Translations under genes and position numbers: made by a program | The notes under the pieces: generated by a model | What the model was told of the DNA's origin: nothing | What the model saw: only the letters and a program-made list of their open reading frames with translations | Database searches by the model: none | In this document: positions 6,404 to 50,497 of the stretch, in pieces | Position numbering within the stretch: the first letter of the stretch is position 1 | Layout: every line of letters starts with the position of its first letter | From: a virus | Taxonomy: Duplodnaviria > Caudoviricetes | Reading direction: 5' to 3' (one strand) | DNA length: 64,000 bases | IMG/VR virus record: IMGVR_UViG_3300029286_000011

Positions 6404-6426
6404 CATTGTACATCTACCTACGGCCC

Positions 6427-6711
6427 TCAGCGAGGGCTAGCGACGCCAACGAGCGTCCGCGTTGCATAACTGGGCTCCGCCGGGAGCCTGTCAACTTTCG
6501 GCAACACACGTGGCAACACACGAAACCTGCACCTGTCTTGGGCGATCACCCTACAGACAGCCAGGCTGTTCATGTGTCGACACCGTTCACAAAAGTTCAG
6601 TCGCCCGACGCGACTGCGCAAGATCCGGATCGGTTCCCCACAAACACCACATGTGTCTGCGAAGAACTGAGAGTCATGACCAACCCTACGCGGAACTTGA
6701 CTGACGATCAT
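6427..6711 (-). CDS. Small Zn-finger protein (CGVC...CERC); start revised to 6711
   Basis: AAAGGA SD before GTG-ATG; two CxxC pairs. Confidence 0.55.
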   Translation of the reverse strand: MIVSQVPRRVGHDSQFFADTCGVCGEPIRILRSRVGRLNFCERCRHMNSLAVCRVIAQDRCRFRVLPRVLPKVDRLPAEPSYATRTLVGVASPR

Positions 6712-11517: not shown

Positions 11518-11574
11518 CTGCTGCCTCGTTGTGACGCTATCTCAACACATTATAAGCAATAACCCCTGATAGCT

Positions 11575-11602
11575 AAAGAAAAGGCCATGCGACTGCATGG
11601 CC
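11575..11602 (-). terminator. Intrinsic terminator
   Basis: GGCCATGC-AGTC-GCATGGCC followed by TTTTCTTT then AGCTATCA. Confidence 0.85.
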
Positions 11603-11703
11603 CCTTCTACACTTGTGACTCATCCATGAGACTAGCCTCCATGCTAAAACAAATGACGTACAGGTAGGACAGGAGCGTATTAGGTTCCGTACGCCTAGTC
11701 TCC
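11575..11703 (-). ncRNA. Candidate ~130-nt structured small RNA with a 6-codon micro-ORF
   Basis: TGGCATAAT at 11709-11717, internal inverted repeats, terminator at the end; see findings. Confidence 0.4.
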
Positions 11704-11718
11704 TACCTATTATGCCAC

Positions 11719-11979
11719 CTAAACGGTCTGCCGTTCAGGGGCCGTCGTGTGACCGTACTGCTCCAGCAGCGCGGTCAGCGCCTGTCGCGACGCAAGCTGC
11801 AGGCTCCGAGTCTCCTCGAAGACCTCCGGCTCGCTCATCGCCAGATCGGCCAGCTCGTCGATGTTGATGACAAGCTGAGTGACCTTCACGACGACGTCGT
11901 TCGGGACGTCGTCACAAAGTGCCACCTGCCAGTGCCTATGATCGGCGTCTGGCATTTCGCAGTAAACGTCGAGTAGCAT
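11719..11979 (-). CDS. Hypothetical protein (start revised to 11979)
   Basis: AGGAG SD and ACTAGCC leader motif. Confidence 0.65.
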   Translation of the reverse strand: MLLDVYCEMPDADHRHWQVALCDDVPNDVVVKVTQLVINIDELADLAMSEPEVFEETRSLQLASRQALTALLEQYGHTTAPERQTV

Positions 11980-12101
11980 CGTGTTTTCTCCTATTACGAG
12001 GCTAGTTATGCGACACGAAAACGCTGCGTCCCCCATATTCTTTCGGAGGACGCAGCGTATTGGAAGAGAATTTCGCCAGAAAAGTACACAATCTGACGAA
12101 A

Positions 12102-12572: not shown

Positions 12573-12608
12573 CTTGAATCCCCTTGGCTAGTTAGGGCTA
12601 GAGCAAAC

Positions 12609-14795: not shown

Positions 14796-14836
14796 AAAAA
14801 AGAAAGACCGACCGGCGTTTGCCAAGTCGGTCTTTC
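14796..14836 (-). terminator. Intrinsic terminator
   Basis: GAAAGACCGAC/GTCGGTCTTTC stem followed by TTTTTT. Confidence 0.8.
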
Positions 14837-14857
14837 CGTGGCGACCTCTGAGTCGGC

Positions 14858-15691
14858 CTACAAGTCGGAATACTTATAGTCGGCTAAGAACGCCAACGCC
14901 GCCTCGCGGCGTTGCGTAGTCGGTTCGTACAGGAACCGGTGCGCCGGACTATCCGACGAAGTATTATGGTTCGACCAGAACGTCCTCAGGTCGAATCCAG
15001 ACTCGGCCATAATGGCTATGTAGTCGTCTAGCCACAAGCCTGCACGCCAGCAGGCTAGCGCATGTGACGATACGCCGTCGCCGGTGTAAATGGCCGGCAT
15101 CATGATGCCTCCATCTTGCTGACGAATAGCCAGCAAAGGGAAGGCCGAAAACGACGTCATGGCCGTCAGAAGAATCTGACAGAGCCCGGCTGCTGGCAAT
15201 GTTGTAGACGCCGGCAGCTGCGCTCCAATGGCCCACAGATCGTTCTGAAGACGGGCCATTGGGTTGTCCTCGAACTTGACCTCGTCGGTTTCCGGGTCAA
15301 GTAGCATGGCATGGCCGTCCGTGACCACCGCATGTACCTGATTGCCAATCAGGCACACCTGTCGCTCTTCCGCCGTCATGGCAGCCAGCTTGGCCATCAG
15401 CTGCTCATGATCATCGAGCCTGTCATGCGACGGCACGGACCCCGTAAGGTCCGTCAGCGGAATGTCCAGACAGGACCAGTTGTTCTGATCCATTGTACGG
15501 ACAACGTCCAGTGAACGACTGCGCATGACAGCCCTGGACAAAGCTGTCAGCGCTTTTGGCAGCATGGTCCTTGGCGCTTGCTGCTGGCTTCTTTCCAAGC
15601 CAACGAGCTTCTCCACCAGCACCGGCATATTGACGATGCTGATGTTCCAGGGCCACCCAAACGGGCGTTCCTTCGCAAGCTTCATACTCAT
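14858..15691 (-). CDS. Hypothetical protein (277 aa)
   Basis: ORF with AAAGGA SD and ACTAGCC leader. Confidence 0.7.
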   Translation of the reverse strand: MSMKLAKERPFGWPWNISIVNMPVLVEKLVGLERSQQQAPRTMLPKALTALSRAVMRSRSLDVVRTMDQNNWSCLDIPLTDLTGSVPSHDRLDDHEQLMAKLAAMTAEERQVCLIGNQVHAVVTDGHAMLLDPETDEVKFEDNPMARLQNDLWAIGAQLPASTTLPAAGLCQILLTAMTSFSAFPLLAIRQQDGGIMMPAIYTGDGVSSHALACWRAGLWLDDYIAIMAESGFDLRTFWSNHNTSSDSPAHRFLYEPTTQRREAALAFLADYKYSDL

Positions 15692-15715
15692 TCCTTTACA
15701 CTAGTGAGGGCTAGT

Positions 15716-16010
15716 AAAAATGGCCTCCGGACGGATCACTAGCCTAATCCGCCGGAGGCCCCACACCACAAAACTCAATAATAGCGCCCTGTTCTGGCTC
15801 CTATGGCCAGCACTCAGGGTCTGTTACCACGGAGTAAAACTGCAAGTTAAGAACGAAGCTAACACACTGGATACCTGTAGGGCAGGCCGGTCAACCGCAA
15901 GCGGTCCACATTTATCGGCGTTCGTTGCCCTAACAGGCTCCAGTGCCAGCGGCAGGAGCCACCGCCGTTGCGACCCCTGTGTAACTTTTTTGCCGAATTA
16001 CACAGAGGTA
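15716..16010 (-). ncRNA. Candidate ~290-nt multi-hairpin non-coding RNA ending in a terminator-like hairpin
   Basis: Five consecutive stems: 15722-15760, 15787-15819, 15874-15937, 15936-15960, 15977-16005. Confidence 0.5.
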
Positions 16011-16022
16011 AGCGCTCCTGAA

Positions 16023-16319
16023 CTACACTCCGTCGTTCCACCAGGCCTGCTGGCTCGGTAGCCACGTGGCCTCCTCGCGCCACGTCCGTCCACCGTTGAC
16101 GTTATCACCGCCCCTGGCCACAAAGTGCGCCGACTTTGACGGGTCGATCACGCGAACAAGGTCCGGACCCGAAACGAATCCGTTGTCGCGGACTCCTTCG
16201 GTGACGCAGTTGATGCAGCAGAACACTTGACCCCAGCAGGCACCGCTGCCGAAGTAGGAGCGGCCGTAGATGTGCCCTAACTCCCGCGTCAGGACTACCT
16301 CTTGTACGTTCGTTGACAT
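16023..16319 (-). CDS. Hypothetical protein (start revised to 16319)
   Basis: AAAGGA SD and ACTAGCC leader. Confidence 0.65.
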   Translation of the reverse strand: MSTNVQEVVLTRELGHIYGRSYFGSGACWGQVFCCINCVTEGVRDNGFVSGPDLVRVIDPSKSAHFVARGGDNVNGGRTWREEATWLPSQQAWWNDGV

Positions 16320-16588
16320 CGCAAAATTCCTTTGGCTAGTGACTATAAACACAAAACAGACCGAAAGGTCTGATAATTGGCGCCTGCCGCAAGTAGGGAG
16401 ACCTACGGCAGGTTCGTTGCACAGGTACCGTAGCAGGCCTGGAGTTATCCAAGCCTCCACAGCGTAAAAGCAACGAAGGACTGCAATGCCGGACTGCAGT
16501 CATAAGATGGCAGCGACCTCAGAACTATGTCCGGTCGCCGCGTATTAAGGCGGTACTAAGCTAAAGTCGATATGCCAAGGAGATTGGA

Positions 16589-16614
16589 AGATGTAATTAG
16601 CGCTAATTACATCT
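16589..16614. repeat. Perfect 26-bp palindrome AGATGTAATTAGCGCTAATTACATCT (copy 2)
   Basis: Read directly; intergenic. Confidence 0.95.
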
Positions 16615-19779: not shown

Positions 19780-21027
19780 TTACTTACCGCACAGGTCAGT
19801 AATAGACTTGAGAATGGCCTGAAACTGTTGAGCCTGTGCCGCATTCTTCGGTTGCCACTTGGGCTTAGCCGAAGCCTGCTTGTTGGCCATTTGAACGAGT
19901 TTGGCAGCTGCCTTGGCCTGAACCGCAGCAGGATCAACGTTGGCCTGCGACAAGGCTTCCTGCAGCATTGCAAGCAGATCGGCTTGCTGACCTTCACCGC
20001 CGGCCATGCCGGCAAGAGCAGCGTCGCCACCTACGTCGCCCATCGGGGGCATTCCCTCAGGGCCTGCGCCCATCGGAGGCTCTCCCATCGGAGGAGCGCC
20101 ACCACCGCCGGCCCCGCCAGCGCCCTGCAGAAGCTGCAGCAGGAGCTCAGGAGGGATCTCGTCGCCGCCACCGGCCATTCCCGCAGGAGCAGCGCCTGGC
20201 ATGTCGCCCATCGGGGCTTCCGCCGCAGGATCTTCCGTCATCGAAGGCTCAGACGACTCGGTCTCTTCCTTCGGAGGCTTCGGATCCTCTTCTTCGGAGT
20301 CTTCACACTCCTCGGCCTGCTTCTGCGCTTGTGCGAAAAAAGCATCGTAGTAGTCTGCCAGCTTGGTAGCAGCTTCGTCGGCTATCAAGATGGTGTCGCG
20401 CAGAGACGTGACAACACCAGCCACTTCGGCTTGCTTGTCATTGGCCGCAGCACCAACAACGGCTTGAGCCAAGGCGGCACCGGCCTGAGAAGCAGCCTTG
20501 GAAGGCTGAGCCGGCTTCTGAGCTTCCTTGTTCGAGGAGTCAAACGCCACAGCCAGCTTCGCAAGGATGCTTGTCCCCTGCGCATTGGCCTGATTGATAA
20601 GCGTTCGAAGCTCAGCAAACTTCTTCCCGTCTAACGAACTGTTGTCGGTACGGGCGGGGTGGCTGGATCCGGGATCGTCCTTCTCGGATTTGGCCGAGGA
20701 GGTTTCGTTGCTCGGATCTTCGCCAGTGGCCGCAACGGTAGCTCCGATATTCATCTGGAACTGATCCTGCGTACCAGGCGTGTTTTCCTTGGCGTTGTTG
20801 ACGCCAATGGGTTGATCATCCTTGTTGTCCTTTTCGTTCTCCGAAGAACGAGCACCTTCTTGCGCAGGTGCAGTTCCATCATCGACGTTCTTGGACGGAT
20901 GGGTCGTAGCGCCGCCAATGTTAGCGGGCTCACTGTTTGCCGAAGCCGACTTCTCCGGATTAACTTGCTGCAGCAAAGCAGCAATGCTGTTCCGAAGACT
21001 GGCTTGCTTATTGAACAAAGTAGTCAT
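19780..21027 (-). CDS. Putative scaffold protein
   Basis: Acidic, low-complexity, between protease and MCP; four KQA motifs. Confidence 0.6.
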   Translation of the reverse strand: MTTLFNKQASLRNSIAALLQQVNPEKSASANSEPANIGGATTHPSKNVDDGTAPAQEGARSSENEKDNKDDQPIGVNNAKENTPGTQDQFQMNIGATVAATGEDPSNETSSAKSEKDDPGSSHPARTDNSSLDGKKFAELRTLINQANAQGTSILAKLAVAFDSSNKEAQKPAQPSKAASQAGAALAQAVVGAAANDKQAEVAGVVTSLRDTILIADEAATKLADYYDAFFAQAQKQAEECEDSEEEDPKPPKEETESSEPSMTEDPAAEAPMGDMPGAAPAGMAGGGDEIPPELLLQLLQGAGGAGGGGAPPMGEPPMGAGPEGMPPMGDVGGDAALAGMAGGEGQQADLLAMLQEALSQANVDPAAVQAKAAAKLVQMANKQASAKPKWQPKNAAQAQQFQAILKSITDLCGK

Positions 21028-47692: not shown

Positions 47693-50497
47693 TTAGCCTT
47701 CGTGAAAAGCAATTAGGGCGGGGGCACGTAAGGCCCCTGACGGTAGTTGCTGCTGGGCTCTTACCTTGGCAACTCGACCAAGATACAGATCAGAGGCATT
47801 GAACAGATCCTTACGAAGATCGTCAGAAATGCCTGTGCCAACCTCGCCAACTTCCGGCCCGTCAGGTGTGAGTGAGTATCCGAACCCACCCGCACCGACG
47901 TTAGTGTACTTGCCCTTGCCTGGGAATATTCGTTTTACGTAGACATCATGGTCTTCCGTAAACTTGCTTTTCATCGGCTTGCCTGTGGGCGGATGTATGA
48001 CAACACCCTCACTGGTCAGCGGATGCTTACCAGCTCTGATGGTTTCCCACAGGGCCTTAGCTGACTCAGCATCTGTAGCCTCATCGGCCACATGAAATTG
48101 CTCAGGCAGATGCTTGGCGACATCACGTAGCATCTGCATTCGCTCGCTGTAAGGCACATCATCAGGGTGAATAGGACGGCTTCCCAGCTGCTGCACATCG
48201 TACAGCATGCTACGAAGCTTGATGTTCCTTTCCTTCTGTGCTTTCAATGAATTAGCAAGTGTGGCATTCAGAATACCACCTAACTCTTGGGGCGGGATGA
48301 CACTATCTCTCTCAACGCCGTCTCCACTGTGTACGGCAGCTTGATCAGCAGCCCCATCGCCAGCTGGCGAAGCTCCGATTCGCTGAGCGAGGCTATCACC
48401 GCCTGTTCCTTCAGCCTCAGCGTTGGACGACACTGCCCGTTCTTGCAATTTCCGCAAGCCATATAACTCCCCCTTCAAAATAGACCCAACCAATTCTTTA
48501 GGTATGTTCAGGCCCTGATGCTTTTTACCAAACATCCGTTCGGTATGAACAATTGGACGGCCAGTGGTCTTGCTGGTTCTGTACGACAGAACTTCCACAC
48601 CATCCCGCACCAGTCTGATAAGAGAAGACGCACCATCTAGCTTAGGCTGGACACTACTGCCCGGCTGCAGCTTATCAAGCACGTCGTTCATCTGCTCTGC
48701 CGGTATACGCTTGTAGTGCACCTTCTCGTACGGCAGCGGCTGCTTTGGCGTTGTATTCAGTAGCAGCCAGTCTTTCTCACGGCCACGCCCTGTGCGTATC
48801 ATTGTGAAACGCTCAGGATAGCGTTCGTCAGCTGTACTGAAGTCGAGACGACCCGGCTGCACACCTGTGAGCAGTATCTGTCCCTTGCGCTGCGTCTTTA
48901 CAGTGCCAGCGCCGTAGCCTTTTAAGGTGCCTTGGAAGTCTTTGTAGCCGTGGGCGTGTAAGGGCTGCTGTACGGCAAGATGCTTAGCGCCAGGAGCCGG
49001 TAGACCCTTTCTAGCGGCCCAGCTGTACAGACCCAGCGAAGGGCCGCCTATGCGTATATCCGAGTGCAGGCCAGCTCTCTGTGCGGCATGCTCTTGAACT
49101 ACGAAGTCAAACAGCTCACCAGGGGTAAGCTTTGACAGGTCACCAAAATTAGCCCTGTCAGGAATACCCATACCAGGAGCGGCAGTCTTCAGCCAGCTTG
49201 CGGCCTTTTCATCTAAGCCAATCTCGTCACCGTATAGAGTGACACCGTACAGCTCGCAACCAATTTTGGCTGAAAATTCGCTGTCGTCAGACTCAAAGAT
49301 GTAATTAGCGCTAATTACATCTTCTGCCTCTTTTGAGTCAGGCCATGGTTCGCCACATCGATTGCAACAGTCATCATCACCACGTTCCAAGAATGCATCG
49401 CAGTTCGGGCAGCATTCATCAGCAGCCTGTTTACCTAGCAGATGTCGAGCCATCTGCAGGACCTGCTCCTGGTCCGCAAGCGTATAGCCTCTGTTTTTGT
49501 AGGACGCTAGCGCACGTCTGTTAATCTGCCACAACTTTGGTAACGATAGTAACTCAGGTAGGGGCGCACGCAATCCCATAGCGATATTACGTCGCACAGC
49601 GCGCAAAGCCGACAACGATGGCCACGTATTAAGCAACATCGAGTTATCAGCTGGCACATCGTGCAACCCGCTATTCGAAAAGCCACTAACGACGACAGGC
49701 TGTGTTTGCTGAGCAAGCCATTGCTGATACTTGCTTGCAACACTTTTTTCAAACTCCTCTTCCTGGCCTGGTGCCCAGTTATAGTCGGTCAAATTGGCAC
49801 CTGCCGGAATACCCATGTCGCGCATCACTTCGCCTGAGAAGTCGTCCAGGTCTTTAGCTACAACACCCTGATGCTCGTCTGCGATCCGATTTAACGTTGT
49901 GGTCTTGCCGGCACCGGAGGCACCTGCGATACGAAGTATGGGTTTTTCAGCTGCGGCCTTACTGACTTCGTTCTCGTTCAATACGTTGGCTTTTCGTATG
50001 CCAATCGTGCAATGGAATTCAAACTCGCCGTCGTGTGGTTTGCTGGACAGTCCGTAAGACCGGCGCAACTGCTGCAGCTCAGGACTCTTTACCTCGATAA
50101 ACCATACCCTAGACACGCCTGACCATCCGTGCGGAACAACAGTCTTAACACGGCCTAGCGTGTATCGAAAGCTTCCACCACGTTCTGTGAGCTTATCGGG
50201 TCCACCGATCTTCTCGATGTCAGCCTTGGAGAATACGGATATGTGTGCTGTGAGCTTGCCGTTGTCATCAACAGGCAATTCGACGCCCGGTTCATCCAAG
50301 GCATCGAAGCATCCGCGCACAATGGCGTTTGGCACGGCTAGAAGGCCCCAACCAGACTGACTGACATACAGTCTTCCGGCCAAGGCATGCGCTGCCACAG
50401 GCTTAGCGGCCTCCTTCACGACACTGGCCACTATATCCTGATAAACCTGCTGCGAAATCTGCGGATAGACTAGACTCACAGCGCGCCTCTCAGTCAT
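47693..50497 (-). CDS. Multi-domain end-repair protein: 2H phosphoesterase + P-loop kinase + Zn ribbon + LigD 3'-phosphoesterase + ATP-dependent DNA ligase with OB domain
   Basis: HISV/HCTI; GASGAGKTT; CPNC/CNRC; FVVQEH..HSDIRI..SWA..YGAGTV; QPKLDG, GELY, LYDV, EGVVI, KSK; VGTG...LRAP. Confidence 0.85.
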   Translation of the reverse strand: MTERRAVSLVYPQISQQVYQDIVASVVKEAAKPVAAHALAGRLYVSQSGWGLLAVPNAIVRGCFDALDEPGVELPVDDNGKLTAHISVFSKADIEKIGGPDKLTERGGSFRYTLGRVKTVVPHGWSGVSRVWFIEVKSPELQQLRRSYGLSSKPHDGEFEFHCTIGIRKANVLNENEVSKAAAEKPILRIAGASGAGKTTTLNRIADEHQGVVAKDLDDFSGEVMRDMGIPAGANLTDYNWAPGQEEEFEKSVASKYQQWLAQQTQPVVVSGFSNSGLHDVPADNSMLLNTWPSLSALRAVRRNIAMGLRAPLPELLSLPKLWQINRRALASYKNRGYTLADQEQVLQMARHLLGKQAADECCPNCDAFLERGDDDCCNRCGEPWPDSKEAEDVISANYIFESDDSEFSAKIGCELYGVTLYGDEIGLDEKAASWLKTAAPGMGIPDRANFGDLSKLTPGELFDFVVQEHAAQRAGLHSDIRIGGPSLGLYSWAARKGLPAPGAKHLAVQQPLHAHGYKDFQGTLKGYGAGTVKTQRKGQILLTGVQPGRLDFSTADERYPERFTMIRTGRGREKDWLLLNTTPKQPLPYEKVHYKRIPAEQMNDVLDKLQPGSSVQPKLDGASSLIRLVRDGVEVLSYRTSKTTGRPIVHTERMFGKKHQGLNIPKELVGSILKGELYGLRKLQERAVSSNAEAEGTGGDSLAQRIGASPAGDGAADQAAVHSGDGVERDSVIPPQELGGILNATLANSLKAQKERNIKLRSMLYDVQQLGSRPIHPDDVPYSERMQMLRDVAKHLPEQFHVADEATDAESAKALWETIRAGKHPLTSEGVVIHPPTGKPMKSKFTEDHDVYVKRIFPGKGKYTNVGAGGFGYSLTPDGPEVGEVGTGISDDLRKDLFNASDLYLGRVAKVRAQQQLPSGALRAPALIAFHEG
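49296..49323. repeat. Perfect 28-bp palindrome inside the CDS (copy 4), encoding DVISANYI
   Basis: AAGATGTAATTAGCGCTAATTACATCTT. Confidence 0.95.

Follow-up and report, generated by a model that had tools for sequence, protein, structure and literature searches.

The intergenic gap between the genes P0004 and P0002 of a lake phage holds a non-coding element that lies on the transcribed strand, folds beyond chance and ends in a strong Rho-independent terminator. We favor, with a probability of roughly 0.37, a composite reading in which the element is a lineage-specific folded 3′UTR that closes a terminator/leader cassette and in addition makes a contact between the terminator loop and a leader box shared by neighboring genes. 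The functional contact itself, considered as a separate part, is plausible from the sequence, and we hold it somewhat unlikely. The initial annotation of this DNA had proposed a structured non-coding RNA or a 3′UTR-derived sRNA, and this is partly supported by an element that is devoid of coding potential, highly structured, and closed by an intrinsic terminator behind P0004.

The window, meaning the whole 64,000-nt stretch that was analyzed and to which all positions refer unless stated otherwise, corresponds to bases 102258-166257 of a 185,248-bp IMG/VR phage genome whose source samples are lake-water metagenomes. A codon-usage gene call places 172 of the 175 codon-scored ORFs genome-wide on the minus strand, and the element is read from 16022 to 15692 because all local genes lie on that strand. 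Few of the phage proteins match PHROGs or Pfam. In relatives recognized by a capsid-region protein of about 40% identity, a gene for a multisubunit RNA polymerase sits upstream of the same head module. The local order on the minus strand is a terminator hairpin with a U-run (16372-16357), a leader box (16340-16334), a Shine-Dalgarno sequence (SD), P0004, the 331-nt gap, and P0002. Judged by its ORF and translation, P0004 (16023..16319, minus strand, 98 aa), of which the element forms the 3′UTR, is a real gene of unassigned function. It has homologues on three metagenome contigs at 41-52% identity, and its AF2 model (pLDDT 78, called confident) has no fold match in the PDB; Atlas feature matches to FGE-sulfatase fragments, with a score of 0.90, are a weak lead only. 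The downstream cassette encodes P0002, also listed as P0005 (14858..15685, minus strand, 275 aa, codon score +23), for which the database start is 15685 and an ATG at 15691 lies directly against the SD. Only distant P0002 homologues, of about 30% identity and in unrelated, non-syntenic contexts, came out of word-index and exhaustive protein searches. Homologues carry labels that hint at Planctomycetota-like hosts.

The gap itself (15692-16022, 331 nt) is non-coding and contains no credible ORF. A 113-aa plus-strand ORF that spans it has a codon score of -11.6 and a 74-aa minus-strand ORF within it scores -5.5, while the gap frames, compared as a decayed gene might be, show no resemblance to the gene that follows the P0004 homologue on contig L003. 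A protein-coding gene or pseudogene was rejected on these grounds. The gap had been described as tiled by stems, and direct reading of the sequence recovers every stem listed. Hairpin A (15974..16008, minus strand) begins 14 nt past the P0004 stop codon and has 13 bp, an A-rich 9-nt loop and a folding energy of -15.6 kcal; the CTGTGTAA/TTACACAG stem at 15977-84/15998-16005 becomes 13 bp with two G.U pairs on the minus-strand RNA. Two alternatives compete with hairpin B (15946..15967, minus strand, 9 bp including three G.U pairs): a GGCUCC/GGAGCC stem and a 20-bp long-range pairing to 15795-15814. For the former, the complementary arms reported earlier are present as GGCTCC/GGAGCC at 15936-41/15955-60, but the stem is one of several competing pairings; two GGAGCC segments are available to GGCUCC, and for this reason the minimum free energy (MFE) fold leaves the stem unused. 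Hairpin C (15862..15947, minus strand, 86 nt, -44.2 kcal) is a long irregular rod with a CCUGU-AGGGCA domain, the arms of which lie at 15865-84/15926-45 around an ACCG-CUUG-CGGU apex at 15894-15905. It is followed by hairpin D (15775..15835, minus strand, -18.4 kcal), where CCCUG/CAGGG arms (15787-91/15815-19) enclose CUGGC/GCCAG.

Two short repeats touch this part of the locus. The heptamer TCGCAAC after hairpin A is identical to the spacer of the 14783 leader. The motif CAACGAAC occurs three times within 500 nt of the minus strand, in the element (15920-15927), at P0004 codons 2-4 (16308-16315) and in the upstream leader (16412-16419), with a window-wide count of 6 against 2.5 expected. Segments reading TTCGTTG(C), complementary to CAACGAAC, lie nearby, and the two may form alternative pairings around the P0004 start.

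The final structure of the gap is the intrinsic terminator hairpin (15722..15760, minus strand, 39 nt, -30.3 kcal), with a 14-bp stem made up of 9 bp and 5 bp separated by a one-nt bulge. Its U-tail, AUUUUU (15716..15721, minus strand), doubles as the T-run of the next gene's leader, 9-13 nt upstream of that gene's proximal box. The hairpin has the features of a Rho-independent terminator, being a GC-rich stem-loop with a U-tract directly after it, on the transcribed strand and downstream of a gene. A simple terminator scanner that allows loops of up to 8 nt missed it because of that loop limit. The terminator loop (15746-15737) reads UAGGCUAGUG, the complement of an ACUAGCC box, and we refer to this complement as the anti-box. 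The MFE fold narrows the loop to a GGCUAG hexaloop, and opening all 10 loop nucleotides costs 4.3 kcal.

When folded as a whole, the 331-nt gap reaches an MFE of -144.5 kcal/mol against -117.4 +/- 6.0 in dinucleotide shuffles (z -4.56), and a second set of shuffles gave z -5.5. Not one of 100 shuffles folded as well. Folding no better than dinucleotide shuffles, which the initial annotation had listed among the findings that together would refute its proposal, is thus not what was found at z -4.6 to -5.5 and 0/100. Relative to a GC regression over 559 genome windows, the gap lies at -2.9 SD and would rank second, and it is among four or five long intergenic regions of the genome with z <= -5; the others range from -5 to -11. 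Neither these structured gaps nor L003 share sequence similarity with the gap, and no repeats of the gap sequence were found within the genome. In a sliding scan, the element's two 200-nt windows gave z -3.9 and -2.2, against a genome baseline of -0.89 +/- 1.25. The P0002 coding region next door gave z -3.4 to -6.1 over 1 kb. The gap and the adjacent coding sequence are thus about equally over-structured. Excess structure is shared by the entire 5-kb accessory region, and an RNA gene cannot be recognized by structure alone. Five consecutive 200-nt windows (14800-15799) reach z <= -3.4, the last of them entering the gap, and perfect inverted repeats occur in the P0002 coding region at 15225/15253 and 15420/15522.

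Other structured regions of this genome were also noted. The 428-nt gap upstream of P0004 (16320-16747) is more structured than the element, at z -9.2; it contains a strong terminator (16729-16695), a 24-bp palindrome copy (16589-16612) along with several perfect hairpins, and its last structure, ahead of the box, is a terminator-like hairpin. The most structured intergenic region of the genome, at genome positions 63708-64030 (window -38550..-38228; z -10.8), contains three long perfect hairpins and a 19-nt sequence duplicated perfectly in tandem, with GTGGCATAAT at its 5′ end. The core TAATTAGCGCTAATTA of the palindrome is present 13 times in the 185-kb genome, mostly in intergenic DNA, with copies in the window near 1856, 16595, 26132, 49303, and 63146; a scan of IMG/VR with the 16-bp core returned 12 contigs, all unrelated. 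An array with a 35-nt period was found by TRF at genome 850-2010, and its complementarity to the element is limited to chance matches of 10-11 nt. Finally, a 934-aa protein (47693-50497) combines 2H phosphoesterase, P-loop kinase-like, and LigD 3′-phosphoesterase domains and, by these domains, looks like a nucleic-acid end-repair kit.

The box that the terminator loop complements is a recurring feature of the leaders in this region. The window contains 19 copies of ACTAGCC where 6.0 +/- 2.4 would be expected, and seven minus-strand copies directly precede the SDs of seven consecutive genes, which start at 16319, 15685, 14764, 13616, 13184, 12572, and 11979. A T-run lies 9-13 nt upstream of each of the seven boxes and is the U-tail of a terminator in four of them, so that terminator, T-run, ACTAGCC, and SD follow one another at 16372-16334, 15760-15709, 14836-14777, and 12058-12000. 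Since the U-tail abuts a leader built of T-run, about 10 nt, ACTAGCC and SD, terminator and leader form a composite junction. The P0004 leader box (16334..16340, minus strand) has the flanked form GUCACUAGCC, which it shares with the 13184 leader; the box flanks are otherwise not conserved among the seven. The P0002 leader (15692..15715, minus strand) carries ACTAGCC at 15709-15715, which is the copy earlier placed 6 nt past the hairpin and indeed present there, as well as a variant box CACTAGTG at 15699-15706 and the SD AAGGA. Tandem boxes 10 nt apart are seen in two leaders, with one pair at 12592. A further variant box, GCTAGCCCTC, was noted at 6414-6450 in the leader of a gene starting at 6413; over 9 nt its sequence is that of the ACTAGCCCTC box in the P0002 leader. 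Among 175 leaders, the one at 6413 ranks third as a partner for the terminator loop. The leader of the core genes differs and reads CACGGAGG, a form shared by relatives. In the core and head genes of the phage and of the relatives L021 and L023 (about 40% identity), an extended (C)ACGGAGG leader was observed, unlike the ACTAGCC-AAGGA of the accessory cluster, and in the window such leaders occur at 21027, 19756, 19266, 18630, 17607, 17101, and 4685.

The arrangement invites comparison with PeSLs, the composite terminator/early-promoter cassettes of T4-type phages (Arbiol et al. 2010, PMC2839356; Comeau et al. 2014, PMC4122927). As in that system, small accessory ORFs of a variable region are separated by a repeated junction in which a stem-loop terminator is followed by the signal of the next gene, and the array of this phage is absent from related phages. 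The junctions differ from PeSLs in that the only sequence they share is the T-run and the 7-nt box, which is too short for homologous recombination; homology extending over tens of nucleotides was not found at them, nor were direct-repeat families. They also contain no sigma-70 early promoter consensus, and the region as a whole yielded one sigma-70-like promoter against 3.7 expected, with none at the junctions. A last difference is that one junction here has 290 nt of extra structured RNA with an inverted box in its loop.

Complementarity between the loop and the leaders had been the central claim of the initial annotation, and it holds up well. The loop is, exactly as described, a perfect 10-nt complement of the 14764 leader, and it is complementary over 7-9 nt to six other leaders (7-8 nt had been claimed). 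It pairs through 9 bp and one G.U with the P0004 leader and likewise with the 13184 leader, and it is complementary at 10 of 12 positions to 15696-15707, the proximal box of P0002, 28 nt downstream. Since the flanks of the box are unconserved, the 10-nt match to the 14764 leader is hardly more informative than the 7-nt core. With the opening costs deducted, kissing with any of the seven leaders is predicted to yield a net -3 to -6.5 kcal/mol. A scan of 175 gene leaders, from which the 13184 leader was left out, ranked cluster leaders as six of the nine best loop partners, which is partly by construction.

On the RNA strand, the anti-box GGCTAGT has 16 genomic copies, two of them intergenic against 1.7 expected, so that no genome-wide enrichment in intergenic DNA was found. 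Both intergenic copies lie in 3′UTRs of the ACTAGCC cluster and both fall in predicted hairpin loops. The cluster's intergenic sequence, about 1.3 kb, would be expected to hold 0.11 anti-boxes; two were seen (p about 0.005), and the placement of the anti-boxes is non-random. The second anti-box (11631-11637) occupies a small hairpin some 35 nt ahead of the last cassette's terminator. Each anti-box can pair over 9-10 bp with the leader of the transcription unit to which it belongs. For the last cassette (11556-12010, minus strand), a long-range helix is predicted between the box at 12006-12000, extended as ACUAGCCUC, and the anti-box at 11631-11639. This helix is within the MFE fold of that transcription unit (TU4) for all four assumed 5′ ends and would amount to a hok-like 5′-3′ closure. 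The spacer of the same cassette carries TGGCATAAT (11709-11717), an extended -10-like motif that recurs in three intergenic regions, at window positions 11717, 7349, and -38244. By plain duplex energy, complementarity between 5′ and 3′ ends was not significant (p 0.12-0.17). The TU1 duplex reached -21.5 against -17.7 +/- 3.0 in shuffles, with 12% as good; 17% of shuffles matched TU4, and TU2 and TU3 showed no complementarity in this test.

These observations suggest a mechanism that would run as follows. The P0004 transcription unit may end in the element as its long folded 3′UTR. The unit belongs to an array of accessory cassettes that is specific to the lineage of this uncultured giant lake phage, which probably has a multisubunit RNA polymerase of its own. 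At the tip of the terminator, the loop would display GGCUAGUG, complementary to the leader box that is specific to the cluster. Once transcription has terminated, the stable 3′ hairpin could touch the ACUAGCC leaders by a loop-to-single-strand (kissing) interaction, for which the best partners would be the 5′ leader of its own mRNA (9 bp and a G.U), the 13184 leader (through GUCACUAGCC), and the 14764 leader (10 bp). Since the box touches the SD, such pairing would damp translation or shield the mRNA ends, and the outcome would be feedback control over a seven-gene early or accessory set. The four upstream hairpins may then serve as a nuclease-resistant body or as a spacer for the 3′ fragment. 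Several points weigh against this composite reading. The element is without a homologue in any collection searched, the 7-bp contact is weak, and the loop is a hexaloop in the MFE fold; furthermore, should ACTAGCC act in the DNA as a promoter or operator element, its inverted copy might be a DNA-level site or have arisen by local inverted duplication.

A broader form of the idea is an RNA-level regulon, in which a common 7-nt box at the SD is matched by two 3′ hairpin loops bearing the anti-box (15737-15746 and 11631-11639) that bring about kissing closure or cross-repression. We regard this extension as unlikely, if worth stating. If true, the phage would have a timing or shut-off circuit that is complete in itself and needs no protein, its regulatory loop carried on a 290-nt folded body that is proof against nucleases.

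The comparative searches returned nothing resembling the element. Rfam 15 over the whole window gave two tRNAs only at gathering score, and in 15600-16100 there were zero matches on both strands even at E <= 10. The Rfam search that the initial annotation had put forward as a check therefore points to no known family, including C4, 6S, riboswitches, ribozymes, and tmRNA, and ARAGORN called no tRNA or tmRNA at the element. No similar DNA was found in 50,697 phage records, and no relatives of the element were found in the phage records, IMG/VR contigs, or metagenome contigs searched. In IMG/VR there were likewise no close relatives of P0002, P0004, a 329-aa neighbor, or the RNA polymerase. The element is absent downstream of the three P0004 homologues, where the regions are unrelated: a 259-nt spacer built of repeats with a tRNA-like minihelix (L003), a 35-nt spacer (L007), and a 70-nt spacer (L008). 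The whole ACTAGCC cluster is absent from L021 and L023, the contigs related via the capsid-region protein, which carry unrelated genes at this position, and the array is therefore a lineage-specific accessory region. Contigs from eight lake/freshwater metagenome runs are letter-identical, with no SNP, indel or joint among the four runs compared. The runs in which the sequence was located are all DNA runs, with no RNA run among them. A 19-mer of hairpin C has 13 matches in 185,579 prokaryote genomes, which are put down to chance because their flanks are all unrelated. Of the contigs with P0004 homologues, L003 is a GC-rich phage contig with modular repeated intergenic elements (44-201, 839-999). 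An 87-nt unit is present in it twice at 100% identity and has a tRNA-minihelix-like fold, in which an acceptor-like stem of 7 bp is joined by a T-arm whose loop reads GGGTTCGAGCCCC; neither ARAGORN nor Rfam called this unit. L008 repeats one hairpin before each gene.

Being an orphan in the collections searched is also what would be expected of a structured spacer with a terminator and nothing more. On that account, the 3′UTR is non-functional or merely stabilizing, possibly the relic of a lost cassette, and the anti-box is a by-product that arose by chance or through local inverted duplication of the adjacent box and has no RNA-RNA role. We consider this a real possibility that falls short of probable. 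The whole accessory region, including its coding parts, is over-structured, and the 10/12 complementarity of the loop to the box 28 nt downstream is what a local inverted duplication predicts. The duplex-energy tests are not significant, and the TCGCAAC after hairpin A hints at a decayed terminator-leader junction. Such a spacer does not readily explain why there are two intergenic anti-boxes, both at cluster 3′ ends, both in hairpin loops, and both pairing over 9-10 bp with their own leader, a joint placement estimated post hoc at p below 0.005. In addition, no frame of the gap resembles the gene after the P0004 homologue in L003, and a z of -5 would not be expected of a decayed ORF.

Alternatively, ACTAGCC may be a DNA element, either the core of a phage-polymerase promoter or a regulator half-site, in which case the RNA fold would be incidental and the inverted copy would be a third DNA site beside 15699-15706 and 15709-15715, used for protein binding, as a roadblock, or in looping. 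The geometry is suggestive, with three CTAG-centered sites in a 50-bp stretch at spacings near 1 and 3 helical turns, and tandem boxes 10 bp apart also at 12592. Terminators precede four of the seven boxes, so that on this account each unit needs its own promoter, and a polymerase to read it would be at hand in a phage with its own RNA polymerase (a Pfam match in the relative L021). The inverted copies, however, lack the T-run present at all seven forward boxes, no regulator was identified, and the placement of both anti-boxes in hairpin loops is left unexplained. We therefore judge a DNA-level role improbable.

Less probable again is an independent structured ncRNA that shares the terminator and acts as a protein scaffold, a 6S-like polymerase decoy, or an RNase III platform. 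Hairpin C and the stacked 20-bp helix do resemble RNase III substrates or 6S-like rods, and the phage has other long structured intergenic regions with z from -5 to -11. Yet none of the genome's recurring intergenic motifs is found at the 5′ end of the element, which has no Rfam match, 6S included, and no sequence similarity to those other gaps. The remaining proposal, a cis-acting attenuator or riboswitch-like leader of P0002 in which formation of the terminator would depend on alternative folds of the gap, is very improbable: a nascent-RNA pairing of the terminator 5′ arm with 15949-15967 is predicted and GGCUCC has its two alternative GGAGCC partners, but the antiterminator pairing gain is 10.7 against 9.3 +/- 2.7 kcal in shuffled upstream sequence (26% as good), the terminator state is 20 kcal/mol more stable, no Rfam riboswitch or leader matches at E <= 10, P0002 has its own box and SD past the terminator, and P0002 homologues are without such a leader. 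The terminator/antiterminator switch raised in the initial annotation is not supported by these shuffles, and membership in the attenuator/riboswitch class is not supported either, given a gain near that of shuffles and no match to an Rfam sensor domain.

For the favored composite reading, the closest working analogies appear to be the fbi-tac closure of hok mRNA and the P1 c4 antisense RNA. The hok mRNA of the hok/sok system of plasmid R1, which is mentioned in PMC9841398 and PMC3562002, has an fbi-tac 5′-3′ fold-back. Here too a 3′-terminal element would pair with a 5′ element by the translation start of the same compact folded mRNA, and closure would keep the mRNA closed and silent or stable. 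The 3′ partner in the phage is placed in a terminator loop, which would give a kissing or pseudoknot contact rather than a nested helix, and the box is common to seven genes with no toxin gene or antisense RNA evident.

The c4 antisense RNA of P1/P7 (Rfam C4) and the CI RNA immunity of P4 rely on phage-encoded structured RNAs that are made from the same transcription region as their targets, and whose loops pair with short complementary boxes near ribosome binding sites or in leaders. The element would similarly be a phage-encoded structured RNA with a loop complementary to short boxes beside ribosome binding sites, but it has no C4 match, differs in size, fold, and sequence, and is located in a 3′UTR rather than being processed from a leader. 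Bacterial 3′UTR-derived small RNAs share the terminator of their mRNA. The phage element resembles them in lying at the end of a coding transcript, in sharing an intrinsic terminator, and in having a candidate pairing region near its 3′ end; the seed would here be inside the terminator loop and not in a single-stranded stretch upstream.

Little is understood of how giant phages that carry an RNA polymerase of their own regulate their genes, and next to nothing is known of their non-coding RNAs. If the contact is absent, the locus is an unusually folded 3′UTR with a terminator in a hyper-variable region and otherwise ordinary. If it is real, one hairpin and seven leaders would make a simple in vitro system, and the phage would coordinate its accessory, probably early, genes purely by pairing between mRNA 3′ ends and 5′ leaders.
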